This document shows positions 31,240 to 50,077 of a stretch of DNA of 50,707 nt, piece after piece. The first letter of the stretch is position 1, and each line of letters begins with the position of its first letter. The DNA is from Fidelibacterota bacterium (GTDB lineage Bacteria > Verrucomicrobiota > Kiritimatiellia > JAIPIQ01), in NCBI GenBank assembly GCA_021734645.1, contig JAIPIQ010000002.1:1-50707 (forward strand). The letters are read 5' to 3'. The translations under genes and the position numbers were made by a program. The notes beneath the pieces were generated by a model. That model saw only the letters and a program-made list of their open reading frames with translations, did no database searches and was not told where the DNA came from.

Positions 31240-31347
31240 ATGGCAAAGAGCAACACCCGTCTGGAACTGACCTGGATCGGCAAGGAGAACCGGCCCAAGC
31301 TGGAGCCGCGTATCCTGATCGAAGACCCGGAGAAGTCCTATCACGCG
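31240..31347 (+). pseudogene. N-terminal remnant of a type III-like DNA methyltransferase (Mod)
   Basis: MAKSNTRLELTWIGKENRPKLEPRILIEDPEKSYHA is the characteristic N-terminus of site-specific DNA methyltransferases of type III R-M systems. Similarity stops after ~36 codons, where the repeat word CACACGAAGGCACGAAGG begins. Confidence 0.6.
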
Positions 31348-31475
31348 ACGTTTCGGCGGGGAAGAGAAGAAAATAGCTCACACGAAGGCACGAAGGAGGG
31401 CGAAAAGAGGCCGGTGCGGCGGTTTGGGAAGGCGAAGGACGAGGGGCCGACGCTGTTCGATTATGGGGGGCTGAA

Positions 31476-32633: not shown

Positions 32634-32634
32634 G

Positions 32635-32982
32635 CGGCAAGTTCCCGTGCCAATCTCCTTCGTGCTGAATTGGTTCAAGCCCGCCAAGGGCGACTTGCAG
32701 ATTCATTACCGCCACGATGAGTCCTACGAACCGGACTTCGTCGTTGAGGCGAAGACCGAAAAGTTCCTCTGCGAACCCAAGCGGGCCACGGAAATGACCG
32801 ATGAAACCGTTCAAGCCAAAGCGGCCGCCGCGGTTGCCTGGTGCCAGCATGCCACGGCCCATGCCAACGAAAACGGCGGCAAACCTTGGCGTTACCTGCT
32901 GATTCCGCATGACCATATCCGGGACCAGATGACCCTTGACGGCCTCGCCGCCAGCCACGATCTGACCCTATCCGCCCCGTGA
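32635..32982 (+). pseudogene. C-terminal remnant of a type III restriction enzyme Res subunit
   Basis: The pattern YEPDFVVEAKTEKFLCEPKRATEMTDETVQAKAAAAVAWCQHAT....GKPWRYLLIPHD is the conserved C-terminal nuclease-like module of Res/DEAD-helicase restriction subunits. No helicase domain or credible start precedes it. Confidence 0.55.
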
Positions 32983-33048: not shown

Positions 33049-33741
33049 TTACAGAACGACGTCATCCCAGGACATGTGCTCCGCCACATAAGGCGGCAGG
33101 CATTGATCGAGTCGCATGCCAAACCACTTTTTCGAACTATCGAAGAGGGTGACTATGCCAATGATCTTCATGTCTTCCGTGATGAGCGGTCCCCCGGCCG
33201 CGCCGGGTTGCCAGGCGTCCGTTTTGAAACGAATGAACGGTTGGTCCTTCCAGACCTGGAATTCGACTGCGCGCACAGTCTTGCCATCGGGTTGAAAGTG
33301 GTACCCTTTGAGCACGGCCGATTTCGCGCCGGACTCGAACCGGATTCGGGCAGGTTTCAAGGGCTCATAGAGTTCCTCGTAGTAAGCGGCGAACGAAAAG
33401 CCACCGGTCACACCGGTGTCATCCGTATCTGAGTACAAGGTTTGCCCGCTCAAAACCATCACGTCCATGGAGGTGGACACAAGGCAAGTGACGTCGGTCT
33501 CGCGGGTGGGTTCAGCCGCGTATCGGACTGAGTAGAGGTGCAGATCGGGGGGGTAAATCGGAAAGGTCGGGCATAAATGGGCACAGGTGAAGATATGCTG
33601 TTGGCAGAGAATGCCGAGATTGAGGAATTGTTCTTCCTCGCCCTCATCCGGGACGGGGACCCGCCCGACGCACCCGAATCTCTCCGGAATCCGGGGCGCG
33701 GCAATTTGTACGATGGCATCGAGTATCTGCTGAGTCATCAT
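33049..33741 (-). CDS. Chymotrypsin-fold (trypsin-like) peptidase homolog lacking the Ser nucleophile
   Basis: AGGAGA lies 7 nt upstream of ATG 33741 (MMTQQ...). His context is FTCAHL (H55), Asp context is SMDVMVL (D93), and QPGAAGGPL (180-185) aligns with GDSGGP with Ala at the Ser position. The spacing fits H57/D102/S195. The longer 443-aa ORF in the track is rejected. Confidence 0.5.
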   Translation of the reverse strand: MMTQQILDAIVQIAAPRIPERFGCVGRVPVPDEGEEEQFLNLGILCQQHIFTCAHLCPTFPIYPPDLHLYSVRYAAEPTRETDVTCLVSTSMDVMVLSGQTLYSDTDDTGVTGGFSFAAYYEELYEPLKPARIRFESGAKSAVLKGYHFQPDGKTVRAVEFQVWKDQPFIRFKTDAWQPGAAGGPLITEDMKIIGIVTLFDSSKKWFGMRLDQCLPPYVAEHMSWDDVVL

Positions 33742-33829
33742 GCGTTTTCTCCTGTTTTGGGGCTGCACTGCGGTTTCAACTCCAATCATACGCGCCCCAA
33801 CGACAAAGGGTGTCGTGGGGTGGAAACGT

Positions 33830-35272: not shown

Positions 35273-37057
35273 TCAGTACTGCATCTCGCGGGCGCGTTCG
35301 GGCTCTGGGAGTGGCGGGGGAAGCTGGATATCGAGGTCCCATTGGATGCCCTGGTTGTCGGTGTACAGGCGGATGGATTTGACCTTGCGGGGGGCTGAGT
35401 AAGCGGCGAAGCAGGCGGCATTGATGTGTTCCGCGAGGTGGGCGGTGAGTCCGCGGGCGCCGGTCTTGCGGGCCATGGCCTGCTCGATCATGAGGCGCTT
35501 GACGGGGGGTGCGATATCGAGGGTCATGCCACTCAGGCGCAATTCGTGTTCGAAACGGCGGATGACATTACGTTCCAGGATTTGCGTCATTTCCTCGAAG
35601 GAAAGCGGGTTGAAGCGGGCGATGAGGGCGATGCGGCCGAGAATCTCGCTCATCAGGCCGTATTTGCGGAGCGCCTCGAGGTCGTCGTCGGCCGTGGCAG
35701 GCCGGGGCGCGCTGTTGAAGCCGATGGCTGCCGCCGAGGTTTGCCGGGTGGCTTCCCAGCCGCTGAAGGTTCCGCAGCAGAGGAACAAGACATTGGCGGT
35801 GCGCAGGTGTTTGCGGGTTCCCCGGCGCGAGCCTTCATGGGGCCCATGGAAGAAGTCCAGCACGGCGTCCTCTTCCATGACCTTGAGCAGGCTCCGCTGG
35901 GCCCCGAAGCGCGCGGCCTCATGGCGGGGTGATAGGCTGTTCCGGGTCTCGGTCGAGGCGGCCAGTTTATCGAACTCGTCAATGATACAGACGCCGCACT
36001 CGGCCCAGGGCAGGTTGCCCCTGGTGGCCGCAAACAACTGGGTACCAATCAGGGCGGAGTCTTCCCCCACGTAGCCGGTTTCCGTGAGGGTGGTGGCGTC
36101 TATCAGGGCCAGGGGCAGCCCGAGGATTTCTCGGAACAGGGTCTGGGCCAGGCACGTCTTGCCGGTACCGGTGGGGCCAATGAACAGGCAGTTGTCACGC
36201 GGCGGAATGTCGCGCGGATTGACGTCCTCCAAAAAAATGCGCTTGAGACGCTGAATATGCCGGAAGGCAGCCAGACAAATCATCTGGCGGGCCGAATCCT
36301 GACCGACATACCCCCGGCGGGCGACTTCATCATACAGCTCCCGCGGAGTGGTTTGCGGCAGCGCGGCCAGAAACTCCCGGACCGGCGGATGTTCACATTT
36401 TTCCTTGCGCGCAGGGGGGGGGGCTTCCTCGTGGACGTCGTCGTCGGAGTCTTCAGAGGGCGAGTCGTCGTGAATCGCAGGCAGCGCGGGACGCGACCAG
36501 CGCTGAAGCGATTGGCCCAGGACCAGGTTGTCTGGCGTCAGTTCCAGCGCCCCGATTCTGAGCAGTTGGGCGATGATCCGGCGGGCCATGAGTACACCCT
36601 CGAGCGCCCGCTCGGAGAAATGGCAACTGGCCATGCGCGCGATATGGTCGGGCGACGTGCCGCTGTGCTTCAGCAAGCCGTCGCAGAAACCCACGAGCGC
36701 CAGCACCGCCAGATGCCCCGGAAGCGGACGACGCCCCCCCGCGCGCTTGATTACGCGGCGCAACGGACCGCAGTGGGCGTCGGATGGCACCATCTGCAGC
36801 ACCCGTTTCATCTGCCGGTCCACCTCTTCAATCGGGTCGCCCGGCAGATCCTGCCAAGCCTCAACATAGTGTGAATCCTTGCACCGCACGCGGTACAACC
36901 GGAACATCGCTTCCCCCAGCGCCAGAAACTGCATCACGCACGCATCCTGGGCCGTCATGACACCCGCGCCCGCCCCCACATCCCGCGCCCCCCCGCGCCG
37001 CACCGTCACGCCACGCCCCACCACCGCCCCCATTTCATCCTGCGCCTCTGTATCCAT
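35273..37057 (-). CDS. ClpX-family AAA+ unfoldase paralog with a non-canonical ~225-aa N-terminal region (no zinc-binding domain)
   Basis: Start at ATG 37057 (MDTEAQ), with AAGGAG upstream. The AAA+ module includes LPQTTPRELYDEV..YVGQDSA, Walker A GPTGTGKT, pore loop TGYVGED, Walker B CIIDEFDK, AAIGFNS at the IGF-loop position, LGRIALIARFNPLSFEEMTQIL and AMARKTGARGL. Confidence 0.85.
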   Translation of the reverse strand: MDTEAQDEMGAVVGRGVTVRRGGARDVGAGAGVMTAQDACVMQFLALGEAMFRLYRVRCKDSHYVEAWQDLPGDPIEEVDRQMKRVLQMVPSDAHCGPLRRVIKRAGGRRPLPGHLAVLALVGFCDGLLKHSGTSPDHIARMASCHFSERALEGVLMARRIIAQLLRIGALELTPDNLVLGQSLQRWSRPALPAIHDDSPSEDSDDDVHEEAPPPARKEKCEHPPVREFLAALPQTTPRELYDEVARRGYVGQDSARQMICLAAFRHIQRLKRIFLEDVNPRDIPPRDNCLFIGPTGTGKTCLAQTLFREILGLPLALIDATTLTETGYVGEDSALIGTQLFAATRGNLPWAECGVCIIDEFDKLAASTETRNSLSPRHEAARFGAQRSLLKVMEEDAVLDFFHGPHEGSRRGTRKHLRTANVLFLCCGTFSGWEATRQTSAAAIGFNSAPRPATADDDLEALRKYGLMSEILGRIALIARFNPLSFEEMTQILERNVIRRFEHELRLSGMTLDIAPPVKRLMIEQAMARKTGARGLTAHLAEHINAACFAAYSAPRKVKSIRLYTDNQGIQWDLDIQLPPPLPEPERAREMQY

Positions 37058-37197
37058 AACGACTCCACTCCTTTTCCCGCACAGTCTACTACACCACCCT
37101 GTCACCTGATGTCCTACGGCAAATCTCCCAGCCACCCGCGCCAAAGCCTGCAACCGGACGGTTCGTCGCCAGATCACACTACATCTTGGCGCGAGCC

Positions 37198-37725
37198 CTA
37201 TTCGTCTTTGTCATCCCACCAATCAGCTTCCCAAAGAGTGGCCGTCCGATAGCCCTCAGCCCGCGCGCGCGCCTCGATTCTTCCGAGAATTTCCTGCATC
37301 TGATCCCGGGTTTCGATCTGCTTGAACCCAACCGGCGCATCAACGCCAACCGCTCTCATCACTTTCCCGTCTATCGGAGGAAACAACGGCATCTTCCCGG
37401 GCTGTCCCATCAGCCACAGGTACTTGAGGTAGAGACTGACGCATTTCTGGGCCACCCCCAGCGTGATCATCCCCGGGTTGAGAATCTGGGAGTGGGTTTT
37501 GTTGATGGCGTCACGCAGACGCTCAATCTCGCCGTAGTAGCTGTCTGCATCGTATACCCAATGAATATAGCGACGCCCCAGGGCGGAAAGCCAAACCTTC
37601 AGGTCGCTTTTCAGCTCATTCCGCAGCGCAATATCCACGTCGCGACGATATACCGGCGTTCCCCGCTGCAACGCTGCATTCACGGAGTTTCTTAACGCCA
37701 TGTTTTCAATAAACGGGTGCAACAT
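37198..37725 (-). CDS. Hypothetical protein, paralog of 42455-43012 (possible HhH/OGG-like fold)
   Basis: 175 aa. AAAGGAG lies 9 nt upstream. Blocks shared with the paralog are YRR, I..LRD..N, AQK.(V/I)S..LK.LW.M, P.D and a W-containing tail. It lies directly upstream of, and co-oriented with, the ClpX-like gene. Confidence 0.6.
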   Translation of the reverse strand: MLHPFIENMALRNSVNAALQRGTPVYRRDVDIALRNELKSDLKVWLSALGRRYIHWVYDADSYYGEIERLRDAINKTHSQILNPGMITLGVAQKCVSLYLKYLWLMGQPGKMPLFPPIDGKVMRAVGVDAPVGFKQIETRDQMQEILGRIEARARAEGYRTATLWEADWWDDKDE

Positions 37726-37938: not shown

Positions 37939-40599
37939 ATGCCCTATAGATGGCCCCAGAAGGTGGAACGGTATCGCATCGTTTGTCCTTTTCAGCGGTT
38001 CCTGGTGGCGAAATACGAAGCGGTGATTCAGTGGCATGAGGGGCAGATCGAGTCGCCCGAGGCGCTGGATGCGCACATTCGCGAGGTCATGCTGCCGAAA
38101 CTCCAGCGCTGTATCACGCCGGGGGATAATAAGAGCCATTATTGCCGGTCCATCAATCTCGAGCACATGCTGGCGAATCCCGCGCCACACATCGAGGAGG
38201 CTCGGCAGCTCAAGGCCCGGCAGGGGGAGGATGCCGCCCGGCAGTTCCTGATCCGGCATATCAACGGGCAGAAGCGGGAGATATTCGATGGATGGTGGCG
38301 GTATGTGACGGAGGGGAACCCAGTCTATGCCGAGGCGCCCGCGTTTCAATATCTGGTCCTGCGGCCCGTGCTTGAGACCTCCAACGCAAAGTGCACGCGT
38401 TCGCCGGTGCCGGTGGACGCCGAAGCGCTGGCGGCGCTGTATGACGGCATCCGGGACGAAGAAATCACGCCGAACGACAGCCTTGTGCGCAAGTTGTGCG
38501 AGTTTATGGCTTTCGAGCGCCAGGCGGCGGGCTCCGCACCTGCTTTCGGCACCGCCTGCGGGTGGGTCACCATCACCCGAGACCAAGCGAAAGCGGCCGA
38601 ACGTGTCGCGGCCCTCTCCCAGGGTAGCGGCTGGTGCGTGGCTTCAAGCAACATGGCCGCGTCCTACTTGCGTTCATCCGACTTCCACCTGCTGGTGGAA
38701 GGCGGGCGGGCCAAGGCCGCTATCCGGATATCGGGGAATAGCGCCGTGGAAATCCAAGGCCCCGGCAACCGCGATCCGGGACTCTGGTGGCCGCGCATCC
38801 AGCTCTATCTCAATGCCCGGGCCGTGAAGATGATTAGCCATCGATGCCGCGAAGCCCTCGCGGGAGGCAACAGGTACCGAAATCAACTGGCCGCCATCCA
38901 GACGCTCAGGGCGCTTGCCGACCACCTGAAGATGCATCCCGCCCAGGTGCAGTTCCTGCCCGAGGACGTCAACCACGATGAAGCCTACCGCCCCATCATC
39001 GAAACCGCCTGGCGCGCCTGCATCTTGGCCGACCCCGTCTGTCTCGCCCTGGCGCCTGCCTGGATGCCGCGCGATGAACAACTTATGGCCCAGGTGCTGG
39101 CCGGCTGGCGCAATCTGCTTAACCTCGACCCGCCGGCTATCCTGCGCATGCCGGCCGACCTGCAGCAGCGCCCTGACTTTCAGGCCGCCCGCCTGCAGGG
39201 GTGGATGGAGCTGATCGGGCGGGATCCCGAGCATTTCCGCCAATGCCCGGCGGAACTGAGAAACGATCCCGAAATCCTCGCCGCCCACAAGCAGGGGTTG
39301 ATGGTTCTAATCAAGCGTAATCCTGAGAAGTTCGATCAGTGTCCGGCGGAACTGAGAAACGATCCCGAAATCATCGTCGCCCGCAAGCAGGGGTGGATGG
39401 ATCTGCTCATACGTGAGCCGGCAATGTATGCTAAATGCCCGGATGATGTAAGGCTGGATTCGGATGTGGAGAGGGCGCTCAAGACACACTGGACAAAACA
39501 GCTCAAGGCGGATGCTTCCCGCGTTTTGTTCACAGGCTATCCCGAAAGAATAACTCGCCATGTGCTAGAGGAACTTTATCCAGCGGCCTCGTACCGTGAC
39601 TGCTGCGCCAGAAGAATCAAAGAGAACCCGAAAATCATCTATCGTATTCCCAAATGGGTTAAATCCCTGCCGGGTATTTTAGAGCTGATTGAACAGGGCC
39701 GGCAGTTATGGCCTGCTGCCTGGGCCAAGCAGAAAAAGGGGATCGGCTCTGATAAGACCATTCGCTTCTATAACAGGCTTCCCGCCGGCGTCAGGAACAC
39801 CCCGGAAATCCAACGCCAATACCGAGAAAACTGGCTGGCTCGTCTGCGCCGCTTTCCCGGCTCGATACCCGCCAGATGCCCGCCAGAGTTTCTGCAGGAT
39901 CCGGATTTCATAAAACAACTGCAGGATTGTATCACCGAGTATCTTCGTTCTCCGCAAGGGAGAAGAGTTCGCCTTCCGCGCTTACGTAAAGAGTGGCAAG
40001 CCAGTGAGGGGGATGTCCGGATTCCGCTGCTAATGCAGTTGCTTGATGATATTGAGGCAGGCCGCATGCCGTGTACAGGGGCGGTAGATCTTGCTTCCAT
40101 AGACTGGAATGCGGCCTCGGCGGAAGAGAAGGCCGCAGTGCGCGAGGTACTGAACAGGGATCCGGCGCGCATGGAAGGAGCATCGGCATCAGTGCAGGGC
40201 GACCCAGAAATGCGTGCCGTGGTTTTCAAGGCTTGGCTGGCCAAGGCCAAGCTTATGGCAGACGCGGATGGAATTCCCAGCAAGATCTTGCGTGAGCCCG
40301 CATTTCGGGACAAGCTCGTAAAGCATTGGAAGACATCCAGGGATTTGTCCTGGGAAGACTGGATGAAGTGCCCGGACTTTGTGAGGGCCGATTCCGAGGT
40401 GGCGTGGCGCGCGGTGGTACCGCTGACCAAGGCGTTGCGGACGAATCCTCGGGTCTGGGGACAGGTCCAATCGCCCTGGCGCGAGATGGAGACGCTGCGG
40501 CGCGAGGCCGCGGAGAACTGGGTTGCCACGCCGTCCTGCGACGGGCAGCCGCCGCCGGAGGACATTGCGGGGCTGGTTGCCGAGCTGCTGGCGGAGTGA
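37939..40599 (+). CDS. Large PcfJ-like domain protein with C-terminal array of ~32-aa CP..L(R/K)..PE(I/F)..A...GW repeats (DUF4116-like)
   Basis: 886 aa, with AGGAG upstream. The central block GWCVASSNMAASYLRSSDFHLLVEGGRAKAAIRISGNSAVEIQGPGNRDPGLWWPRIQLYLNA is conserved in the two paralogs at 45377 and 47780 and resembles the PcfJ signature (C....Y......(x)..EI.G..N). At least 6 tandem repeats follow. The PcfJ and DUF4116 labels come from memory of family patterns. Confidence 0.6.
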   Translation: MPYRWPQKVERYRIVCPFQRFLVAKYEAVIQWHEGQIESPEALDAHIREVMLPKLQRCITPGDNKSHYCRSINLEHMLANPAPHIEEARQLKARQGEDAARQFLIRHINGQKREIFDGWWRYVTEGNPVYAEAPAFQYLVLRPVLETSNAKCTRSPVPVDAEALAALYDGIRDEEITPNDSLVRKLCEFMAFERQAAGSAPAFGTACGWVTITRDQAKAAERVAALSQGSGWCVASSNMAASYLRSSDFHLLVEGGRAKAAIRISGNSAVEIQGPGNRDPGLWWPRIQLYLNARAVKMISHRCREALAGGNRYRNQLAAIQTLRALADHLKMHPAQVQFLPEDVNHDEAYRPIIETAWRACILADPVCLALAPAWMPRDEQLMAQVLAGWRNLLNLDPPAILRMPADLQQRPDFQAARLQGWMELIGRDPEHFRQCPAELRNDPEILAAHKQGLMVLIKRNPEKFDQCPAELRNDPEIIVARKQGWMDLLIREPAMYAKCPDDVRLDSDVERALKTHWTKQLKADASRVLFTGYPERITRHVLEELYPAASYRDCCARRIKENPKIIYRIPKWVKSLPGILELIEQGRQLWPAAWAKQKKGIGSDKTIRFYNRLPAGVRNTPEIQRQYRENWLARLRRFPGSIPARCPPEFLQDPDFIKQLQDCITEYLRSPQGRRVRLPRLRKEWQASEGDVRIPLLMQLLDDIEAGRMPCTGAVDLASIDWNAASAEEKAAVREVLNRDPARMEGASASVQGDPEMRAVVFKAWLAKAKLMADADGIPSKILREPAFRDKLVKHWKTSRDLSWEDWMKCPDFVRADSEVAWRAVVPLTKALRTNPRVWGQVQSPWREMETLRREAAENWVATPSCDGQPPPEDIAGLVAELLAE
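39244..39400 (+). repeat. Near-identical 96-bp-period internal duplication within the repeat array
   Basis: 39244-39304 versus 39340-39400 show 5 differences in 61 nt by manual alignment. They encode CPAELRNDPEILAAHKQGLM and CPAELRNDPEIIVARKQGWM. Confidence 0.85.
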
Positions 40600-40779
40600 G
40601 CGGGTGCGGCATGGTCCTTTTCCCGCTGTCGGACGACACGGAGGCCGTCCCTCCAAATAGCCAGACACCATGACATCCATTGGCAGCGCCCCGCAGTAAA
40701 CTTCAGAAAAATACTGACCGACCCCCTCGCGACGGGTTATCGTTGAGCCGAAGATAGGTCCACAATTGGAGGATGAAGC

Positions 40780-41472
40780 ATGTGCATGCCCGACATACTG
40801 CAAGAGGAAGCAACGCGCATCAGGGGACTCGACGTTGACCACCAAGAAATACTGTTTGATCGCAATAGCTGGAGAAAACATATCCCCGATCTTGACGACC
40901 TGCTTGCCGGAATCCCCGGTGATCTCATTTCCCGTCACACAATGTACGGCATTGCCCCAAACGACCCGCCGCTGCCGGCACCTTGTACGCCAGCCCGGCA
41001 GGCGGATCTCCGCCGGTTCTTCATCCTGGTCATGATCTGGGGTTACGGGAATGTGGGCACAGGCCCTTGGAGAGTGAGCCAGATGATCGCCTCTCCCCGT
41101 TTCCCAGAAATCCTCTGCCGTGTAAGTGAAGAATGCTTTTGCGGCTTCTTCCTGAAGGCGTACGACACGTTGATCTCCAACATCAAATGGCTCGGCCCAG
41201 CTTTCGCATCCAAGTACCTGTACTATTTCTGCCGGAAAGTTCCAGCCCATGTCAAGCCCCTGATCTGTGACCGCGTCGTTCTTCGCGCCATGCGCACCTT
41301 CGACTGGCCAGCGTGGTGTGTGAACTACATTGCTGATGGGAACACACCGCGCCGTCAAGCTCACGCATATGGCCAGTACCTCATCCTCATGCATAACTGG
41401 GCGCATGCACTGGGTTGCCGTCCAGACCAGCTCGAGTACTTCCTTTGGAGAAGAGGAACAGAAGCAATCTGA
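40780..41472 (+). CDS. OGG-fold (8-oxoguanine DNA glycosylase-like fold) family protein
   Basis: 230 aa, with GGAGGA 7 nt upstream. The pattern VMIWGYGNVGTGPWRV.....L.GPAFASKYLYYFC......PLICDRVV is what I recognise as the '8-oxoguanine DNA glycosylase OGG fold protein' family. No catalytic assignment is possible. Confidence 0.5.
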   Translation: MCMPDILQEEATRIRGLDVDHQEILFDRNSWRKHIPDLDDLLAGIPGDLISRHTMYGIAPNDPPLPAPCTPARQADLRRFFILVMIWGYGNVGTGPWRVSQMIASPRFPEILCRVSEECFCGFFLKAYDTLISNIKWLGPAFASKYLYYFCRKVPAHVKPLICDRVVLRAMRTFDWPAWCVNYIADGNTPRRQAHAYGQYLILMHNWAHALGCRPDQLEYFLWRRGTEAI

Positions 41473-41490
41473 GCCGAAAAGAGGTCCACA

Positions 41491-42399
41491 ATGACAATTG
41501 AACAACTGCTGGCGCTGTTTCCCGATTTGCGCGAATATCTCTTGATAGACGGAAGTCCTGTTGCACTGCCGCATGATCATGACAGGCCGAATCCAAAGTA
41601 TTCCGCGGAGATGTTTCGTTTGCAATCACCGCTTAGAACCTGCTGGTACGGCTCCGCTGGGATGGACATAGCGCCCTGCGCGTTCTTCGGCAGCTATCTT
41701 ATGGAATGCATCCTCCCACAAGAAGGGGACAACCGCGTGTTTCGTATTGCTCAACCATTCGATAGAAGGAAGATCGAGGGGCTGGTGGGTGGCGAAGTGA
41801 ACGTCTTCTTCTACACGGATGCCCAGTATGTTATTGGGAGAAGAAGCTGTAAATGGTGCGGCCATAATTTCACAGCAGATGACGATTGGCCGGTTCTCCA
41901 AGTTGACTTTCAGTGCCTTAAATTCAAACCACATCGTGATTGGCCGTGTGCCCAAATAGACATTCAGGGAAAATGCGAAGCCCTCATTTATGGCCTTTGC
42001 GCACCCGAGGCGATCATAGTCTTCATCAAAACCACAGATGAGGACTTTGAACAGACACTCGTCGAAAAAGGCATGACCATTGATATAGCCTGCCATGCCG
42101 GCGGTATGGCCGGTCCTGGCCCTCGAAGACTCCAGAATCTTGGCTGTCGGTTCGCCTTGGGTCAGACGCCTTTGGCTTTTGTGCATGGGCGTGGCTATCT
42201 TTCCCCCGCCGGGCATTACGATAACCACGAAGATGCATCCATCATCCCGTTTACCACGGAGCCAATTCATCGTCTAAATTGGGGATTCTGCGGATATGGC
42301 GGATGTGATTTGCAACGCGTGAACAACGCAGCAGCATATTCACCGTCGAAACTGAGGAAATTGTTGGAGTCCTTGAAAGACGGTGCGATCCGACGATGA
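41491..42399 (+). CDS. Hypothetical protein
   Basis: 302 aa, with AGAGG upstream and normal composition. It starts 18 bp after the previous gene. No family is recognised (motifs CWYGSAGMDIAP and FFYTDAQY). Confidence 0.6.
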   Translation: MTIEQLLALFPDLREYLLIDGSPVALPHDHDRPNPKYSAEMFRLQSPLRTCWYGSAGMDIAPCAFFGSYLMECILPQEGDNRVFRIAQPFDRRKIEGLVGGEVNVFFYTDAQYVIGRRSCKWCGHNFTADDDWPVLQVDFQCLKFKPHRDWPCAQIDIQGKCEALIYGLCAPEAIIVFIKTTDEDFEQTLVEKGMTIDIACHAGGMAGPGPRRLQNLGCRFALGQTPLAFVHGRGYLSPAGHYDNHEDASIIPFTTEPIHRLNWGFCGYGGCDLQRVNNAAAYSPSKLRKLLESLKDGAIRR

Positions 42400-42454
42400 G
42401 AAGACCCTCATGCCAAGACCATAGATTGAAGCACTTCCTTTTCCGGATAGCACG

Positions 42455-43012
42455 CTATATCCTAAACTTATCTAATTCCCATTCAGCAAGTGCTTTCCTG
42501 TCGTCCCCCTTAGCTCTGATCAGGTGAGCAATCTTTTCGCGATGGTCAGCGAGCGAGTTGACGTAACCCCACTTGGTGTCTGGATAGCGCTTGCCGGCGG
42601 CCTTAAGAATTCTACTATCTACTGGACATTGAGGTGGAGTTGCCACGTCGTTCATGCACCAAAGGTGCTTGAGGAAGACCGAAATGCTCTTCTGCGCATG
42701 CGAAATGCGAAATCCTGGGTCAGTATGGTATCTCTCGTGCGGCTGTGAATAGAAAGCATCTGAAAACTCGCGATTCATGTTATCTCGGAGCGTTTGGATG
42801 TCGTTTTCATAAGTATCGACAGCCTGGGGAATTCTGTAACGCTTCGCTATCTCCACAAGGCATTCTTTCCATGCCGCTATTACATCAGCCTTGCGCGCCG
42901 TGGAAAGTCCCCGCCTATAAAGCGAGTTGTGCTGCACTGCCGCCATAATCGCACTCGATAGGGCTTTGTCGCGGGTCCTCATGGGGTTGTATTTGTTGAG
43001 AAATTCAATCAT
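42455..43012 (-). CDS. Hypothetical protein, paralog of 37198-37725
   Basis: Start moved to ATG 43012 (MIEFLNKY), which has AGAGGGA upstream. The ATG at 43063 lies only ~9 nt from the predicted -10. It shares the AQKSISVFLKHLWCM...CPVD block with the 175-aa paralog. Confidence 0.6.
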   Translation of the reverse strand: MIEFLNKYNPMRTRDKALSSAIMAAVQHNSLYRRGLSTARKADVIAAWKECLVEIAKRYRIPQAVDTYENDIQTLRDNMNREFSDAFYSQPHERYHTDPGFRISHAQKSISVFLKHLWCMNDVATPPQCPVDSRILKAAGKRYPDTKWGYVNSLADHREKIAHLIRAKGDDRKALAEWELDKFRI

Positions 43013-43071
43013 TGTTCCCTCTCTGTGCGAAATAGCTAGTGCTTTATTGGATTGTTTTATCATTAAGGAAG

Positions 43072-43100
43072 AATCTAGGACAACTCGGAGAAAATGTCAA
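43072..43100 (-). promoter_or_regulatory. Sigma70-like promoter for 42455-43012
   Basis: On the minus strand, TTGACA (43100-43095), a 17-nt spacer and TAGATT (43077-43072). Confidence 0.5.
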
Positions 43101-43110
43101 GAATATTAGC

Positions 43111-43155
43111 AACTACCCAGGTGCCCGCCCGCTGCGGGCGGGCACCTGAGTAGTT
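43111..43155 (-). terminator. Strong hairpin downstream of the ankyrin gene (intrinsic terminator candidate)
   Basis: AACTACcCAGGTGCCCGCCCGctgCGGGCGGGCACCTGaGTAGTT has a 14-bp perfect GC-rich stem extended by 6 bp. On the minus strand it is followed by an A/T-rich tract (GCTAATATTCTT). Confidence 0.6.
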
Positions 43156-43244
43156 ACACGCCATCAAAAAGACCAGAAGCCCCTGAGGAAAAATGGCCCG
43201 AAATAGCCCGCCAGATTTTTGATCGCATGCACCAGATGCACGAC

Positions 43245-44552
43245 CTAATCTCGCCTATTTTCATCTGATTCAGGCGCCGCCGGTCGGCGGTCCATGTTCG
43301 TCTGCTCCTGCAAGAGCTGAACAAGGGCATGATAGTTCCTGCTCTCAGCAAGGTCCAACGCGGTCAGTCCGTCATTATTGTGCGCGCTCAGATTTGCGCC
43401 ACATTCGATCAAATACTTTACGCCACCTTCATAATTATGAACGACCGCCTCCATAAGAGCAGTGATCTCGTCTTTGCTAGGTTTGTCCACCTACGCGCCC
43501 GCCTGGATCAAGGCGCGCATGATCGGGATGGGCCTGCAAGCGGCACAAACTCCCATCAGGACGGTTCGGCCTTTGCCATCAGCCGCATTCACATCAGCGC
43601 CCGCCGCGATCAGAGCGTTGATGACGTCAAGATTGTTTTCCTCGCACGCAAACATCAGCGCAGTCACCCCTGATACATCGGTCGCATTCACCTGGGCGCC
43701 TGCTGCAATCAATGTGTCAATGATTTGTGAGTTAGGGTTGCGGGTGGCCGCGCTCATCAGCGGCGTGAATCCACAAATGCTGTGTTCGTTGGGATCAAAG
43801 CCGGACTCGACAAGCCTTTGGATACATTCGGGGTCACTCACTCTCGGCAGGTAGTCTTGCAGGAGCTCGTCCAAGTCAAGGCGGGTTTCCGCCTCGTCTC
43901 CGGCCGAAGCATTGGCGTCCCAAAAGACTTCATCGTCAGTCAGGCGCACATCGCTTCTGCCCGGGGTGAGGGAGCCATCCGTTGAGACGCGTGTCCAGGG
44001 GAGCTCAATGTCGCCGTCGAACGGCGATCCGAGAAAGGGTAATCCATAGAGCAGGCTGGTATCTTCGATGACCATATCGCCATGAAAGTCAGTCCAGGCC
44101 TCAGCGGACTCGAATGCCGAAATGCATTTCTCGAGACCCTCTGACAGCATGGCGCTGTCCTTCTCGCGGGGCAGCGCCCAAAAGGCGTAAAGGTCAATTT
44201 CGAGGAATCGGGCGCCGCAATTCTCGACCGCCTTTAGGAACAGGTCCACATACGGCCACAATTGCGGATGAACGTGCGGCCGGATGACGGGGAGGCGCTG
44301 CTGGAAGTATTGGCGGGCCGCTTCCAGGGGCGTGTGCATCGCGGGGATCGGGACCTTGGGGGTGTCCTCCTCCCAGCTGTCGGAGGGGACAAGCACTTCC
44401 TTGATGTGTTCCTTGCCAAAAAGTGCCATCCAAAGGATGGGAATTGGGTCGGAATCCACCTCAAATCCCATTCCAAGTTGATAGGGCGCCTCCGCCAGCC
44501 AGCCGATTGGCTGCGGCTCGTTGTGCGCTTTCAAGAAACTCCGGTCACCCAT
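43245..44552 (-). pseudogene. Ankyrin-repeat protein with unknown ~240-aa N-terminal domain, interrupted by one in-frame TAG
   Basis: ORFs 43491-44552 and 43245-43490 are in the same frame and separated only by TAG (plus-strand CTA, 43491-43493). The join reads ...MRALIQAGA*VDKPSKDEITALMEAVVHNYEGGVKYLIECGANL, which falls exactly inside an ANK repeat. Confidence 0.6.
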
Positions 44553-44638
44553 GATGCGTTCCCTTTAATCCAGCTACACCTGCAACGGCTATTTTGTCTC
44601 CCCACGGGCAGGGCCGCACAAGGGGTTTTGCAAGCGCC

Positions 44639-45187
44639 TCATACGTTGAGCGGAACATCTGGATCGTGAAGTTGAAGTTTATTGGCGATAGTATGCCATA
44701 CTCCATCATTCAAGACGCCTCTCCTCCTCCACAGCTTCAGGTCAGTCAGGCCATCATACGATGAAAGTAGGGCGATCTGAAGAACTATGAATGCGGTGCT
44801 TTCAGGATCAATGCCCTCAAATATCTGTTGTCGGATTTCTTCCGGTAGTCGCCGGGCGTTTCCTCCAATGGCGTCATGCAGTCTTTTCTCATTAGCTCTC
44901 GCGTCGTCCTTGCTTTCGCAAGGTATGATGTAGCGTTCAAACGTGTGATTTCCGAAGAGATGAAAGGCGCGAACAAGGAGCGCTTTTACGTGACAGGTCG
45001 TTCTCTGGCCTGCGTCATCGAAAATGACTTTGGCTCGGTTGGCCTTTCCGTGACCAACAACAATAGCCTCATCATCGCAGGCAAGGATGTAGACCATGTA
45101 TCCATCATGGGGAATATCGTTGACCTGCGCGGGAACAGAAAATCGCCCTTGATACAATCTTTCTAGAGTTTCTCGTGTCATCGTCAC
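44639..45187 (-). CDS. Hypothetical protein, possibly GIY-YIG-like
   Basis: 182 aa. GYMVYILACDDEAIVVGHGKANRAKV followed by ..ARANEKRLHDAIGG loosely fits the GIY-(x10)-YIG..R..E pattern. The call is weak. Confidence 0.45.
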   Translation of the reverse strand: MTMTRETLERLYQGRFSVPAQVNDIPHDGYMVYILACDDEAIVVGHGKANRAKVIFDDAGQRTTCHVKALLVRAFHLFGNHTFERYIIPCESKDDARANEKRLHDAIGGNARRLPEEIRQQIFEGIDPESTAFIVLQIALLSSYDGLTDLKLWRRRGVLNDGVWHTIANKLQLHDPDVPLNV

Positions 45188-45376
45188 CCTTTCATTATTT
45201 TACACGCCAGTTTAGCCTGCGGCGTTGACATTCGATGTCATAGTTGCGCTTGTATTTACACCTTTAGTTTAAAAACTTTAAGCTAAAGAGCCCCAGCATT
45301 CAAGATTATTTTCGCCCACGCTCGCGATGACAGCGCTTGTCAGGTTCAGGGTTATGCTGGGGGTACGCACGAGGCA

Positions 45377-45835
45377 ATGCATTTCGGGAAGGCCAGCGGG
45401 GCGGGCTGGCGTTGGGTGGTGGTATCAGGCGGGGGGTGTCGGGCGGTGCGGCGTTTGGCGGCTTGGTCGGCGGGGCGCGGTTGGTGTACGGCGTGGCGGG
45501 AAAAGGCGAAGTATTATCTAAAGCAGGCGGATTTCCATTTGCTGGTGGCGGGAGGGCAGGCGCGGGTGGCGCTCCGGGTGGCGGGGAAGCTGATTCTGGA
45601 GGTTGAGGGTTGCGCCAACCGGGACCCGGGAGCGTGGTGGCCGCGGATTCTGCTCTATGCGAATGCCCGCGCGCTCACGATCATTCACCGGGAGGCGGCT
45701 TGCCGCCAGGCCATGGGTATGATGGGTCGGCAACTGGCGGGTCATACGTCGCCCCAGGGATGTAACCGTTCACACTCAGGAAGGGGCGGGGTCGCCGCCC
45801 CCGCCTACAGTCCGGAAAACGTCGGTATTCTGTAG
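45377..45835 (+). CDS. Truncated PcfJ-like paralog (core domain only)
   Basis: 152 aa, nearly identical to residues ~33-150 of the 47780 protein. Similarity ends at ...GHTSPQG, and the last 26 codons plus the stop lie inside a 29-bp-stem hairpin. Confidence 0.45.
   Translation: MHFGKASGAGWRWVVVSGGGCRAVRRLAAWSAGRGWCTAWREKAKYYLKQADFHLLVAGGQARVALRVAGKLILEVEGCANRDPGAWWPRILLYANARALTIIHREAACRQAMGMMGRQLAGHTSPQGCNRSHSGRGGVAAPAYSPENVGIL
45404..45761. repeat. 358-bp direct repeat, copy 1
   Basis: It aligns without gaps to 47876-48233. My manual alignment finds about 22 mismatches (~94%), with only 2 in the last ~150 nt. Weaker similarity with indels extends upstream to about 45338 and 47779. Confidence 0.85.
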
Positions 45836-45858
45836 CCGGGGGCGGCGACCCCGCCCCT
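45782..45858. repeat. Long GC-rich hairpin (REP-like or terminator) at the truncation point of repeat copy 1
   Basis: Arm AGGGGCGGGGTCGCCGCCCCCGCCTACAG (45782-45810) pairs with arm CTGTAGCCGGGGGCGGCGACCCCGCCCCT (45830-45858). That is 29 bp with one mismatch and a 19-nt loop. Confidence 0.8.
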
Positions 45859-46059
45859 CATGACGTTGGCCTGCGCCTACGAGCACTGGATCTCAATGAC
45901 GCTGCCCCCCAAAAAACGCACCCCGTGAACGGCTACGATCTGGGAAGGCGATCCGTTCCTCGATATTGACCTCCATACGGCCCTCAGATAGCTTACCCAC
46001 CATGACATGCAATGTCCTCCCCATCTGGTAGGTTGCGTGGATAAACCAAAGGAGCAAGC

Positions 46060-46863
46060 GTGAGCATTCGCATCTACGGGAAGATTCGCAAGACTATCAA
46101 GGGGAATAAGCCCAATCCGTTCTATTGCGATTGGCGACCGGACGAGAGGTGGCGGATGGTGAACATCACAACCGCCAGTCCGGAATGGGGGCGGGCGCTG
46201 TCGCCGATGTTCGTGGGGCCGGTGGAGATTCCGGGTGTGGATCCTGCGGCGACGGCGGTCAACATCGAGAGCGCATGGCAATATTCGAAGGCCTATGGGT
46301 GGGTGCAGAACCAGCAGGGGCAATGGGAGCGGCACGTGGGCGCGGATTTGAACCCCACGCCCGAATGGTGGGCGTTTGCCCGGGCGGGATGGGCGCAGAC
46401 TCGGTTCGACGTGAACCATCCGGACTTCAAGGCGTGGAAAGGCGTGTTGCGTCGGCCCGTGGTGAGGTTGCCGAAGGCCAAGGAAAAGCCGCAGCCGACC
46501 TTTGCGTGGTGGAACGGACGGCGGATCACCTATATCGAGGGCCGCCAGGCGGTCTATGGCCAGCTCTATTGCGACTTGATCGTCAAAACGGAGGCTTTTG
46601 GTCGCCTGAAGGCGATGCACGACCGGGGCGACGACATCGCGCTGTTCGACTTCGACGGCACCGACCATATCGGCCTGGGCCGGAGTTACGAGGATCTGCT
46701 GAACGATCCCGGCCGGCCGTTTGGACACGGGTTGCTGCTTTCCATGCTGCTGGAGGAGGTGAAACTCGCCGACCTTAAGATCCGGGAGGAGCACACCTTT
46801 GAGTATCAGCGGCAACACAATCTCCTTCGGCTCGACAGGGGGATGGCGGCCCGGCCGCAATAG
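46060..46863 (+). CDS. Hypothetical protein, possible NADAR/YbiA-like fold
   Basis: GTG start preceded by AAAGGAG. It is 267 aa. ALSPMFVGPVEIPG....NIESAWQYSKAY and the C-terminal GRPFGHGLLLSMLLEE loosely parallel the NADAR blocks (FSNF...P....SxEhyfQa.K ... G.N.LG..LM). The family call has low confidence. Confidence 0.5.
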   Translation: MSIRIYGKIRKTIKGNKPNPFYCDWRPDERWRMVNITTASPEWGRALSPMFVGPVEIPGVDPAATAVNIESAWQYSKAYGWVQNQQGQWERHVGADLNPTPEWWAFARAGWAQTRFDVNHPDFKAWKGVLRRPVVRLPKAKEKPQPTFAWWNGRRITYIEGRQAVYGQLYCDLIVKTEAFGRLKAMHDRGDDIALFDFDGTDHIGLGRSYEDLLNDPGRPFGHGLLLSMLLEEVKLADLKIREEHTFEYQRQHNLLRLDRGMAARPQ

Positions 46864-46893
46864 CCGGACCGCCGCCACTGGGAATGTCTGGGG

Positions 46894-47607
46894 TTATGGA
46901 GATAATGCGTTCTGGGCATCAATCAGCAGGCTTTGAACCTCGAAATGCTTGTAAACGGTGGCCATGAACAGGGCGTCAAAGCCATCATCATTGGTCATTT
47001 TGATGTTGGCTCCCGCCCTGAGCAGCATCTCCACGATCGGCGCGTTACCCGCTTCAGCCGCAAGACCCAGAGCGAATGCCCCGCTGCAATCCCGGGCATT
47101 TACGTCTGCGCCAGCCTTGATCAGCAACTCGACCACCTCGGGATGCTGCAGATAGGCGGCGCCGTGGAGGGGGGTGACGTCGTTGTCGTCTGTGATCCTG
47201 GGCTGGGCCCCCGCCTTGAGGAGCGCATCCACAATGTCATGATATCCCCGAACAGAAGCCAGATACAGGGCGGAGAGACCCTCATCGGCCTGGGCATTCA
47301 CATCCACACCGGCTATGATCAGCAACTCCACGATTTCCCGATACCCGCATTCGGCGGCGTATATCAGCGCGGTGCGCTCCGGGTATCCAGAGACCTCGTT
47401 GATATCTACCCTGGAAGCGATCAAAACCCGGCAAGATTCGAGATCCTCTTTGCGAACAGCTTCCAGCAGCGCAGTTGCAGGCTTCTCTGCGGGTTCGAAA
47501 TCCACAGATTCAATCTCCACTCCATCCTTCTCAGGGTGCTCGTTCCCATCGTTGGCTTCTTCCATTTCCATCTCCTTTTGGTTGTTCATGTCCAAGGGTC
47601 TTCTCAA
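46894..47607 (-). CDS. Ankyrin-repeat protein
   Basis: 237 aa with an acidic N-terminus and then about 5 ANK repeats (TALIYAAECGYREIVELLIIAGVDVNA, SALYLASVRGYHDIVDALLKAGA, TPLHGAAYLQHPEVVELLIKAGADVNA ...). Confidence 0.85.
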   Translation of the reverse strand: MRRPLDMNNQKEMEMEEANDGNEHPEKDGVEIESVDFEPAEKPATALLEAVRKEDLESCRVLIASRVDINEVSGYPERTALIYAAECGYREIVELLIIAGVDVNAQADEGLSALYLASVRGYHDIVDALLKAGAQPRITDDNDVTPLHGAAYLQHPEVVELLIKAGADVNARDCSGAFALGLAAEAGNAPIVEMLLRAGANIKMTNDDGFDALFMATVYKHFEVQSLLIDAQNALSP

Positions 47608-47779
47608 GATTTCAGATTCGAGCAGGTTGGCGCGGGCAAAGCGGGCGCCGGGGGTACCAGCGTGAACGATGACCCAGTTCTAGCATGCGTCGCTGACAAA
47701 GAGTGTCCTACCCCCCCGATTGCTGTGCCGGGCTGCGACTCTGTGAGATGCCGCGGGTTCTGATTCGCCGCGACATTGG

Positions 47780-48919
47780 TTGTCAATGGTCAGGGTTATG
47801 CTGGGCGGTATGAATGCAGCCATGGGTATTGCGGATGCGGGTGGTGGTGGGGTTGGCGGGGCAGATGGGGCCGGGGGCTGGCGTAGGGTGGTGGAATCGG
47901 GCGGGGGGTGTCGGGCGGTGCGGCGTTTGGCGGCGTGGTCGGCGGGGCGCGGTTGGTGTACGGCGTGGCGGGGAAAGGCGAAGTATTATCTGGAGCAGGC
48001 GGATTTTCATTTGCTGTTGGTGGAGGGGCAGGCGCAGGTGGCACTGCGGGTGGTGGGGAAGCTGATTGTCGAGGTTGAGGGTTGCGCCAACCGGGACCCG
48101 GGTGAGTGGTGGCCGCGGATTCTGCTCTATGCGAATGCCCGCGCGCTCACGATCATTCACCGGGAGGCGGCTTGCCGCCAGGCCATGGGTATGATGGGCC
48201 AGCAACTGGCGGGTCATACGTCGCCCCAGGGATTGGATGCGGCGCTGCGCCGGGACCCGGCGTTGGTGCAATATGTGGCGGACGGGATGGCGGGGAGCCC
48301 GTTGCTGCGTCCGGTGGTGTTGGCGGCCTGGCGGCGTTGCATTGCGGCGGATGCGGCCTGCGTCGGGCTGGCGGCGGCGGTGTTTCCGGGCGTGTTCCGG
48401 GGGACGCAGGCCTGGCGGCCGGGTTGGGAGGCGGCGCTGCAACTGGAGCCGACCACGATTGCCCAGCTTCCGCTGGACCGCCAGGCTGAGCTTGAGGACC
48501 CGGTGCTGGCGTGGTCGTATGCAATCGAGATGGAACCGTTGCTGTATGTCGGCTGCCCCGCGGGGTGGCGCGAGCAGGCGGTTGTGCGGGCGGCGCGTAT
48601 CGCCGGCTGGGTCGTATGCCTGAAGCGGAATCCGACGGCCTACCAGCGGTGCCCGCGGAATCTGAAATCGCTGCCGGAAATGGTGCAGGCGCATCGCGAG
48701 GGGTGGGTGCTCCGGCTGCGGAATTTTCCCCAGGACTATGTGCACTGCTCCCGTGTGTTGCAAAGGAATCCGGAGATCCGGGCCGCTTGGCGACAGGGGT
48801 GGTTGGGGCGGCTCTCGCTTGCGCTTGTGGGAGTAGCCTGGCGCAAGCAGGGGATTGCCGCGCAGCCGGACCCGATTTTCTGGAAGGGCAGGACAGCGTT
48901 TGTCAGTGTGATCTGTTAA
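47780..48919 (+). CDS. PcfJ-like core plus 32-aa-repeat protein (short paralog of 37939-40599)
   Basis: 379 aa with an uncertain start. It has the core GWCTAWRGKAKYYLEQADFHLLLVEGQAQVALRVVGKLIVEVEGCANRDPGEWWPRILLYANA. C-terminal repeats are CPRNLKSLPEMVQAHREGW and CSRVLQRNPEIRAAWRQGW. Confidence 0.6.
   Translation: MSMVRVMLGGMNAAMGIADAGGGGVGGADGAGGWRRVVESGGGCRAVRRLAAWSAGRGWCTAWRGKAKYYLEQADFHLLLVEGQAQVALRVVGKLIVEVEGCANRDPGEWWPRILLYANARALTIIHREAACRQAMGMMGQQLAGHTSPQGLDAALRRDPALVQYVADGMAGSPLLRPVVLAAWRRCIAADAACVGLAAAVFPGVFRGTQAWRPGWEAALQLEPTTIAQLPLDRQAELEDPVLAWSYAIEMEPLLYVGCPAGWREQAVVRAARIAGWVVCLKRNPTAYQRCPRNLKSLPEMVQAHREGWVLRLRNFPQDYVHCSRVLQRNPEIRAAWRQGWLGRLSLALVGVAWRKQGIAAQPDPIFWKGRTAFVSVIC
47876..48233. 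repeat. 358-bp direct repeat, copy 2
   Basis: See 45404-45761. Confidence 0.85.
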
Positions 48920-48946: not shown

Positions 48947-50077
48947 ATGGAGAGAATTCTGGCGGATGGACAATATCACTATGCGTTTCATGTGGTTGCG
49001 GCAGCGGGGCGGGCCAAGGATGTTGCTCAGACCCTGAAGGGTTGGAAGGCGAATATCCGGGCGGCGGCGGGGTTCGGGGTGGATTCTGTTGAGGCCCTGG
49101 CTGCGCGGGTTCAAATGATTCCGGGAGTCGCGCGGGTGATTCCGACGGGTCCCCGGTCGGCCTTGCCGCTGGCCTTGCGGATGGCCTGCGGCTTGACGGA
49201 TCGCAAAGGGGACTTTGTGTGTCACAAGGGAACCGGGTTTTTTGCGGAGCGGATTGTCGAGGAATTACGGGCCTGGAACATTGCCTTTCATCCGGCCCGC
49301 GATCTGAAGGGCGACATGCCTTTGGCGTTCATTGTCTTGGACCCCGCCAATCCCCGTGATCAGCAAAGCGCGGAGCTCTTTCCGCTCCCCCGAACCAGCT
49401 ACCAGCACCGGAGCCGCCATGCGGAAGAAATGATCGAGGGCGCCATGGCCGTGCTGCTGAACCGGGTGAATGATGGGATTCTGGAAACATCCCGTAAAAT
49501 GATGGACGCCCGAAAATTGGTTTCCCTGCGGATTCATGGATACTCCCGGCATGTGAAGTTCGAAGATTACCGGCCACTCTTGCCTCTGATCCACCACCTC
49601 ATCCTGGATTCCGGACATGGGTCCCTGCGTGAGACGGCTCGCGCCCTGAACATGGACCCCCCGAAGGGGTGGCCTGATGGGGGCGGCTTCCGGACCGAGT
49701 TTCTGGAAGAGATGGCGAAAAAACTTAATGAGATTGCCGGGAAATCCCTGCTCTACCTCTTCATTGTGAAGGGCCGGGACTCCCTATATGCGGTCGGGCG
49801 CGCGGGTTCGACGTACGTCCGGTTGTGTCCGGCTTTGCCCCCGGGGAGTGTGGCTGATCTTTCGGTCACGGCCCGCTCCCACGGTGCTTCAGTTGCGGCC
49901 GCGCTGGACCCGAAGCCGGCCTTCGAACTCGAGCCCCAAACCTTCCAGCCGGGCACCCAGGCGGGCTTGCAGGCGTTCGCCAACTGGGTGTACCGGGCGG
50001 CTTATCACGGGCTGTTGAACATTCCCTGGACCTGGCCCGAGCGCCCGTTTGACGTTCCGCGCCCCGCAGGGGGCTGA
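48947..50077 (+). CDS. Hypothetical protein
   Basis: 376 aa. AAGGAG lies 7 nt upstream. It starts 27 bp after the previous gene. Composition is normal and no family is recognised. Confidence 0.6.
   Translation: MERILADGQYHYAFHVVAAAGRAKDVAQTLKGWKANIRAAAGFGVDSVEALAARVQMIPGVARVIPTGPRSALPLALRMACGLTDRKGDFVCHKGTGFFAERIVEELRAWNIAFHPARDLKGDMPLAFIVLDPANPRDQQSAELFPLPRTSYQHRSRHAEEMIEGAMAVLLNRVNDGILETSRKMMDARKLVSLRIHGYSRHVKFEDYRPLLPLIHHLILDSGHGSLRETARALNMDPPKGWPDGGGFRTEFLEEMAKKLNEIAGKSLLYLFIVKGRDSLYAVGRAGSTYVRLCPALPPGSVADLSVTARSHGASVAAALDPKPAFELEPQTFQPGTQAGLQAFANWVYRAAYHGLLNIPWTWPERPFDVPRPAGG

Follow-up and report, generated by a model that had tools for sequence, protein, structure and literature searches.

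We have analyzed a stretch of DNA of 50,707 nucleotides (nt) from Fidelibacterota bacterium (contig JAIPIQ010000002.1), which we call the window, and in particular its region 37939-48919, where three plus-strand genes (A, J, and G) encode proteins with a common core. An earlier note on this DNA had described the region as an array of three units of a possibly undescribed system, each with a conserved head, a variable downstream cargo gene, and a divergently transcribed ankyrin or small gene. Comparison of these genes with one another and with loci from other assemblies demonstrates instead a mosaic that arose by recombination and duplication, with one intact gene of the family (A) and two derivatives (J and G). 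The neighboring genes are independent members of a pool that accompanies the family elsewhere, as opposed to the cargo of a head-plus-cargo system. Our best explanation, to which we give about an even chance, is that recombination has shuffled this region, an accessory segment of an island derived from mobile elements in a chromosome that is probably verrucomicrobial, and that the family would act in conflicts between hosts and such elements. Here, the family means the proteins that share the N-terminal module of A, that is, a helical N-domain and a PcfJ-like core; L001 to L021 are numbered loci from other assemblies that were compared with the window, and numbers such as P0059 designate family proteins.

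The conserved core that the earlier note recognized in the three plus-strand genes is real. In BLASTP comparisons, A matches J with an E-value of 1e-54 (36% identity) and G with an E-value of 8e-30, and the invariant columns of the core, GWC...A..YL...F..L...A...E..G..N, are retained in all three. In the numbering of A, these residues are G231, W232, C233, A240, Y243, L244, F249, L252, A261, E271, G274, and N277. A is the only full-length member in the window. Its start at 37939 is backed by the MPxYxWPxK N-terminus that is conserved among its homologues, 30 of which are found at E ≤ 1e-138. A profile of A residues 1-344, searched against 1.84 billion cluster representatives (clusters at 50% identity), finds 665 representatives at E ≤ 1e-3, of which 128 have E ≤ 1e-30. 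In nearly all of the best 150 of these 665, the module sits at the N-terminus of a protein of 500-1800 amino acids (aa). The N-terminal domain of A had been described as an extra one. The domain exists, but it is ancestral and not an addition, because most of the best 150 relatives have it.

The other two copies have different histories. J, whose start lies shortly ahead of the first core strand, is missing the helical N-domain, but it retains every invariant core residue and intact repeats. As for G, the duplicate that contains it aligns over approximately 430-450 nt with the 5′ end of J, including J's own start region. In this alignment 22 of 357 bases differ, and those 22 differences alone give a ratio of nonsynonymous to synonymous substitution rates (dN/dS) of approximately 0.4. 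There are two insertions or deletions near the 5′ end, one of 27 nt and one of 1 nt, and the homology stops abruptly at 45761. A hairpin lies directly past this breakpoint and covers the stop codon of G. Thus, the three paralogs that had been proposed do share the core, but G, on the evidence of the alignment, is a fragment copy of the 5′ end of J and not an independent paralogue.

The family has a characteristic architecture: the helical N-domain, a PcfJ-like alpha/beta core with one invariant cysteine, and a variable solenoid of DUF4116-type repeats. No library names it, and the description of these proteins as uncharacterized is well supported. An AlphaFold2 (AF2) model of A residues 1-344, with a predicted local distance difference test (pLDDT) score of 88.9, places a small alpha/beta core after a helical domain. 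A Foldseek search of the PDB with this module finds no significant neighbor, with GNAT-type noise and a best E-value of 0.56, and a PDB sequence search with the family profile gives no match. When Foldseek is run against BFVD, the top match is an uncharacterized Caudovirales protein of 1494 aa (E-value 3.4e-8), and entries annotated as PcfJ-like protein appear with E-values of 1.6e-4 (probability 1.0), 0.012, 0.017, 0.027, and weaker. Two BFVD matches only have E ≤ 1e-3, and the root-mean-square deviations are high (12-22 Å).

Profile comparisons may point to the same relationship by the placement of the motif. Aligned by hhalign with PcfJ of the Enterococcus faecalis plasmid pCF10 or with a small PcfJ alignment, the family profiles give E-values of 0.05-0.11 over 19-58 columns, always in the same register: GWC(V)A(S)...Y...EIQG..N against RHCVGS...Y...IQIQGKCNR. 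The PcfJ alignment is shallow, as a search with pCF10 PcfJ gave only close Enterococcus relatives, and the profile comparison was not sharpened by it. As a control, the Pfam family PF14284 is detected in relatives of pCF10 PcfJ. One distant member of our family, P0059 (L019 8001-11996), combines the N-module, at residues 20-315, with a separate, canonical PF14284 domain at residues 891-966 (E-value 2.9e-9).

In both the family and PcfJ, a helical N-terminal region precedes a small alpha/beta core, and the cores appear to share a motif in register, [H/W]-C-V-[G/A]-S ... Y ... hydrophobic strand ... (I/E)-I-Q-G-x-x-N-R. Both are also found on mobile elements or phages, near genes of anti-defence type. 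On the other hand, the family has a tryptophan where PcfJ has a histidine before the cysteine, it further has a long solenoid of DUF4116 type and an N-domain of its own that is strongly conserved, and the two cores coexist as separate domains in P0059. The head is thus, in our view, a remote relative of PcfJ in structure, and not a member by Pfam's criterion. The earlier assignment of a PcfJ-like core holds for the fold, which matches viral PcfJ-like proteins, and may hold for the motif, but PF14284 does not match the N-module in any member scanned. Judging by conservation, C233, Y243, E271, and N277 may be the functional residues. A Cys-His catalytic dyad in the core was considered and rejected; it is unlikely because H250 is not invariant, being S or Y in P0004 and in L010/L011.

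The C-terminal repeats do resemble DUF4116 (PF13475), as the earlier note proposed. They have a 32-aa period, corresponding to a 96-nt repeat in the DNA, with CP motifs at residues 436, 468, and 500 in A and at 259, 291, and 323 in J. The DUF4116 score of A is 28.1 bits, above the cut-off of 24.9, and the score of J alone is below threshold. The match is present in 16 of 31 close homologues, and in only 4 of 57 distant members. A and half of its close relatives are in this sense like DUF4116 proteins, with 32-residue helical repeats, but in this family the repeats are a variable tail; the conserved part that defines it is the N-terminal module, which is covered by no Pfam family. Two other weak signals were seen. 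PF05315 ICEA (an IceA/NlaIII-like family) has weak matches in 9 of the 31 close A homologues, with a best E-value of 0.011, and a DarT match in 1 of the 57 distant members (E-value 0.0074) is at chance level.

Close homologues of A come from metagenome-assembled genomes (MAGs) of Verrucomicrobiota, Victivallales, and Chthoniobacteraceae. A metagenome scan gave 5 short loci only. At 30% identity, homologues sit in a near-identical island in MAGs assigned to Competibacteraceae and to Bacteroidetes. There, L010 1600-8900 and L011 6300-12200 share the order NADAR, metallophosphoesterase, a 323-aa gene, a 264-aa gene, and the family gene, with 90-95% protein identity, a similarity which points to recent transfer or to mis-binning. 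Three distant members are on phage-like contigs with many small open reading frames (ORFs), in which no phage hallmark gene was identified. The contig of one locus (L019, with P0059) has a weak T4_Y16D match, and upstream of the family gene two ADP-ribosylglycohydrolase (ARH) genes, a cold-shock gene, and a ribosomal S21 gene.

The genes H, I, and K in other genomes bear on how the region was put together. The H-I block is 85-86% identical in nucleotide sequence to L005 and to L012/L013, with sharp borders. The H protein is 95% identical to its homologue in L005, 91% in L012, 73% in L014, and 69% in L016, and across 15 clusters it is 58-91% identical, with many invariant columns. Homologues of K (48-53% identical) adjoin I or H in L005, L012, and L014, and the order H-I-K is kept in L005 and in L012/L013. 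In L012/L013, H-I-K occurs with no family member within 10 kb. In L005 and L012, I and K are direct divergent neighbors with gaps of 92 and 152 nt, and in the window they are 1339 nt apart, with J, which is 27 nt from K, in between. The position taken by G in the window is occupied in L012/L013 by an E-like gene. Other loci have still other arrangements: a full-length family gene divergent from H (L005); K divergent from H (L014); and DUF5131, the family gene, and NADAR, then H (L016). In L014, besides, a 139-aa ORF that follows the H homologue (10820-11239) matches K only at the N- and C-termini and stands beside a full copy of K; by this pattern, it is an internally deleted K remnant.

Some of these genes recur near the family in a wider set of about 19 independent loci, counted by hand so that the numbers are not an exact tally. 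NADAR genes lie within 5 kb of a family gene in six of them (L001, L002, L010, L011, L016, and L021), DUF5131 is nearby in five, H accompanies the family in four (the window, L005, L014, and L016), and a SNF2 helicase with two uncharacterized partner genes does so in three. Ankyrin, OGG, K, X, and WYL-type helix-turn-helix (HTH) genes also recur, and the order and orientation of the pool genes vary between loci. No counterpart of C, D, F, or L was found in any compared locus.

Thus, several families recur together across genomes, and recurrent linkage, whose absence would have spoken against the earlier note, does exist. Because the shared pool changes order and orientation, this linkage is at the level of the island, not of an operon. 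What does not survive is the conserved unit of head, variable cargo, and ankyrin neighbor: H-I-K is found without any PcfJ-like gene, J sits where I and K adjoin each other in other genomes, and G is a fragment of J. The layout itself is as described before; the ORFs are present in the ORF list where the earlier note placed them, and divergent minus-strand neighbors (L; F and E; I) do face the plus-strand genes. Table 1 gives their coordinates.

Table 1. Genes and other features of the region, in window coordinates.
Feature	Coordinates	Strand	Length	Description
L	37198-37725	-	175 aa	divergent from A; paralogue of D
A	37939-40599	+	886 aa	helical N-domain (~1-200), PcfJ-like alpha/beta core (~205-300), DUF4116-type 32-aa repeats
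B	40780-41472	+	230 aa	OGG-fold, putative DNA glycosylase-like (PF21790)
C	41491-42399	+	302 aa	no family assigned
D	42455-43063	-	202 aa	paralogue of L; final gene in the minus-strand run F-E-D
Hairpin	43111-43155		22-nt arms	near-perfect; between E and D, upstream of D
E	43245-44552	-	353 + 81 aa	ankyrin gene split by in-frame TAG at 43491-43493
F	44639-45187	-	182 aa	no family assigned
Partial J duplicate	45329-45761	+		copies the 5′ end of J (47772-48232)
G	45377-45835	+	152 aa	core only; inside the partial J duplicate
Hairpin	45782-45858		29-nt arms	arms 97% complementary; single occurrence in the window
H-I block	46000-47620			sharp borders; common to other genomes
H	46060-46863	+	267 aa	no family assigned
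I	46894-47607	-	237 aa	ankyrin protein
J	47780-48919	+	379 aa	core and three 32-aa repeats, without the N-domain
K	48947-50077	+	376 aa	no family assigned; shared gene pool

The identities that had been proposed for the neighboring genes fared unevenly. B is, by its full-length match to PF21790 (profile positions 2-201 of 201, 121.9 bits, E-value 3.7e-35), an OGG-fold and putatively glycosylase-like protein, in agreement with the earlier assignment; a 66% identical homologue is present in L014/L015, where approximately 17 kb separate it from the A-homologue. By their Pfam matches, E and I are ankyrin proteins, and in PADLOC their repeats match only models that contain ankyrin. The ankyrin repeats of E run past the in-frame TAG down to 43245, and E is probably a pseudogene; over its N-terminal 215 aa, it shares 43% identity with the gene that lies immediately upstream of H in L012.

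L had been called HhH-like (helix-hairpin-helix). L and D are paralogues (BLASTP E-value 7e-13), a relationship that had been missed, and hhalign aligns the two with OGG on the expected SKYL...P.D motif, at an E-value of 0.1. L has no Pfam, NCBIfam, PADLOC, or PHROG match, and an HhH/OGG-like motif in L and D is suggestive only. H had been called NADAR-like, which we do not find. The NADAR family PF08719 is not matched at E ≤ 0.1 by H, nor by any of its 15 homologues, and hhalign of H against five genuine NADARs from related loci aligns a C-terminal stretch only (E-value 0.048). For the AF2 model of H (pLDDT 82), the top PDB match is the Geobacter NADAR 8bat, with an E-value of 0.48 and a template modeling (TM) score of 0.31-0.36, at most a hint of structural likeness in the model. 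In L016, H adjoins a separate, genuine NADAR gene. Identifying H with a 265-aa gene downstream in L003/L004, or with NADAR, was rejected by BLASTP. The GIY-YIG-like assignment of F finds no backing either, as no Pfam, NCBIfam, PADLOC, or PHROG family is matched at E ≤ 0.1 and there is no PDB sequence match; the motif resemblance was by eye only.

For the remaining proteins, the libraries are largely silent. F, G, H, J, K, and L have no Pfam match at E ≤ 0.1, and C and D have only sub-threshold matches at chance level. C and K have no detectable relatives of known function, and PDB sequence searches with H, F, D, K, and C gave no match. NCBIfam, PADLOC, and PHROGs, compared with ten proteins of the region, match only a ClpX-like neighbor, and PADLOC-DB 2.0 has no match for A, B, C, D, F, H, J, K, or L. 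Scans for tRNAs and Rfam elements found none present. A promoter and terminator scan did no better than on shuffled sequence, and a promoter-like site upstream of D (43100-43072) comes from that same scan.

To the left of the region, dnaN and dnaA (23809-26597) are directly followed by an island of lower G+C, which begins at approximately 28 kb and adjoins what is probably the replication origin region. This left segment holds the genes of a conflict-type island. A complete IetA/IetS pair occupies 28290-31198, with PADLOC E-values of 5e-72 for IetA (AAA, 324 aa) and 2.1e-35 for IetS (subtilase, 642 aa). A SoFic-type Fic gene with a PADLOC match (31476-32633) lies inside 31045-32982 between two fragments of Type III restriction-modification (R-M) genes: an N-terminal methyltransferase fragment (31045-31479, profile positions 3-39 of 575) and a C-terminal restriction enzyme fragment (32623-32982, profile positions 765-866 of 871). 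From these fragments, the R-M system around SoFic appears to have been gutted or replaced. The segment also has a WYL-type HTH gene and, at 35273-37177 on the minus strand, the ClpX-like AAA+ protein of 634 aa. Its N-terminal stretch of approximately 260 aa has no assignment; its best match is phrog_4339 (8.6e-39), and it scores far under the ClpX equivalog cut-off. A 28%-identical homologue of this protein adjoins a family gene in L008.

Two further genes of the window are worth recording. An ORF at 33049-33801 on the minus strand, which overlaps competing ORFs, is 28-30% identical (E-values 1e-26 to 1e-28) to the gene that directly follows the family gene in L003 and L004. In the window, approximately 4 kb separate this ORF from A, on the upstream side. 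Far from the region, at 6267-7121 and also on the minus strand, is a gene for an AbiEii-type nucleotidyltransferase toxin (PF08843, 5.3e-8).

How should these observations be interpreted? That the segment has been shuffled is visible in its decay scars as well as in its gene order: the TAG in E, the R-M fragments around SoFic, and, outside the window, the internally deleted K-like remnant of L014. The mobile-element status of the window rests on other loci, because neither an integrase nor a conjugation gene is present in the window itself; an integrase is present in L003, a TrwB/DUF87-like gene in L002, and DUF932, PDDEXK, and HTH_17 genes in L012. The phage-like contigs of distant members and the match of the ClpX-like neighbor to a phage family (phrog_4339) are further signals of this kind. 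In our reading, the pool would belong to mobile elements and serve host-element conflict. The family itself would most likely be a counter-defence or establishment factor, like plasmid PcfJ and the PcfJ-like proteins of phages, in which the variable solenoid may bind a target on which the conserved head then acts.

We favor counter-defence or establishment for four reasons. On pCF10, pcfJ adjoins a gene annotated as AcrIIA9-family, and an ArdC-like gene is a few kb away on the plasmid. PcfJ-like proteins are common in phages. The commonest neighbors of the family are orphan NADARs, in addition to ADP-ribosylglycohydrolases. And neither the family nor its partners match a defence model. PMC11257639 describes orphan NADARs as a phage counter-defence against DarTG1, in which they act as antitoxin mimics. 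The closest known parallel would be the anti-defence or accessory clusters of conjugative elements and phages, which are likewise pools of small to medium genes in variable order on mobile elements. The orphan NADAR or ADP-ribosylglycohydrolase genes beside the family in seven loci are like the orphan NADARs of that paper, and the pCF10 neighborhood of pcfJ has the same character. The likeness is incomplete: the window has no demonstrated anti-defence gene and no Pfam-detectable NADAR, and neither an origin of transfer (oriT) nor a relaxase or integrase is visible in it.

Several observations weigh against this explanation. In addition to lacking integrase and conjugation genes, the window ends with the contig at 50707. 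No match to the N-module of A turned up in a tblastn search of 72,556 plasmids and 50,697 phages, a distant full-length member (P0056) has none in phage records, and IMG/VR scans found nothing. The link to PcfJ is weak at the sequence level. PF14284 is absent from A, G, and J (E ≤ 0.1), from the 31 close homologues (E ≤ 1), and from the N-module of the 57 distant members (E ≤ 0.01). Nor is any PcfJ-like protein known to have an assigned function, and in the literature searched the term occurs in a single incidental mention. J may be a functional short form and not a remnant, because it starts cleanly at the boundary of the core domain, keeps all the invariant residues, and is so close to K. 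Finally, the location would suit a role in defence just as well, because the left flank holds bona fide defence systems.

That last point leads to the alternative that best withstands the evidence, although we regard it as unlikely: a novel anti-phage defence module, with the solenoid protein A as sensor, B (plus C) as effector, and J-K and G-H as diversified variants. DNA glycosylases can be antiviral effectors, as in the case of Brig1. The IetA/IetS pair, SoFic, and the R-M remnants are in the same island, WYL-type regulators or HTH genes are nearby in several loci, and the ankyrin genes resemble the PADLOC candidate PDC-M72A. But the linkage of A and B is not conserved, as the sole other OGG homologue is the one found approximately 17 kb from its A-homologue, and H-I-K occurs without the supposed sensor. 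PADLOC matches none of A, B, C, H, J, and K, distant members are on phage-like contigs, and the most recurrent neighbors, the orphan NADARs and ADP-ribosylglycohydrolases, are enzymes of the counter-defence type.

One could also propose that, except for A and perhaps B, the region is decaying duplicated DNA with no present role. G is a fragment, E has an internal stop, J has lost the N-domain, R-M fragments are nearby, and the dN/dS of G and J, for what 22 differences can tell, might be taken in the same sense. This we find decidedly unlikely, given the good conservation of H, I, and K in other genomes (for H, over the 15 clusters cited above), and given that J keeps the invariant core residues and intact repeats, and that the pattern of G+C at third codon positions (GC3) in J, H, and K is gene-like.

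The analogy that the earlier note drew with polymorphic toxin/immunity loci or an orphan toxin cassette array, where a conserved head would carry a variable toxic part and the ankyrin or downstream genes would give immunity, is extremely improbable: the layout of a full-length gene followed by downstream truncated copies with a homologous segment and signs of recombination there, as in Rhs, contact-dependent inhibition (CDI), and LXG arrays, and the presence of ankyrin proteins, are a superficial likeness, for no signal, PAAR, RHS, LXG, or two-partner secretion (TPS)-type trafficking domain and no toxin domain was detected by Pfam in A, G, J, or their 31 close and 57 distant relatives, the variable part is a helical repeat solenoid and not a toxin tip, the shared segment is an internal core that the truncated copies retain in place of a new C-terminal tip, and the immunity candidates, far from being small cognate genes, are autonomous neighbors, 230-376 aa long, which are also found where the family is absent (L012/L013), with B/C, H, and K not strictly linked to it.

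Returning to the mobile-element island and its conflict factor, a bolder version can be stated, which we offer tentatively and consider somewhat unlikely. The proteins with the N-module and a solenoid (the 665 clusters) would be an undescribed and widespread class of conflict factors of mobile elements and phages. Their head, with its Cys, Glu, and Asn, would be an enzyme or effector, the fast-evolving solenoid would set target specificity, and they would work beside removers of ADP-ribose (NADAR, ARH). J-type proteins would then be a functional head-less or decoy variant, made and moved by recombination at the core.

What is new here is a branch of PcfJ-like proteins that no library annotates and that ends in a DUF4116 tail; in the window, it sits in an accessory island whose genes have been reshuffled. 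Rearrangement, and not design, gave rise to the apparent three-unit system, and the only sensible units to consider in the window are A (with B and C), J-K, and the H-I block. Conjugative plasmids, integrative elements, and phages commonly carry PcfJ-like proteins, none with a known function, and a large sister family of theirs is now defined. Its repeated proximity to orphan NADAR or ADP-ribosylglycohydrolase genes and to other accessory genes of mobile elements makes its members concrete candidates for counter-defence or defence screens. The family is sizeable and uncharacterized, and it is plausibly related to conflict between hosts and mobile elements.

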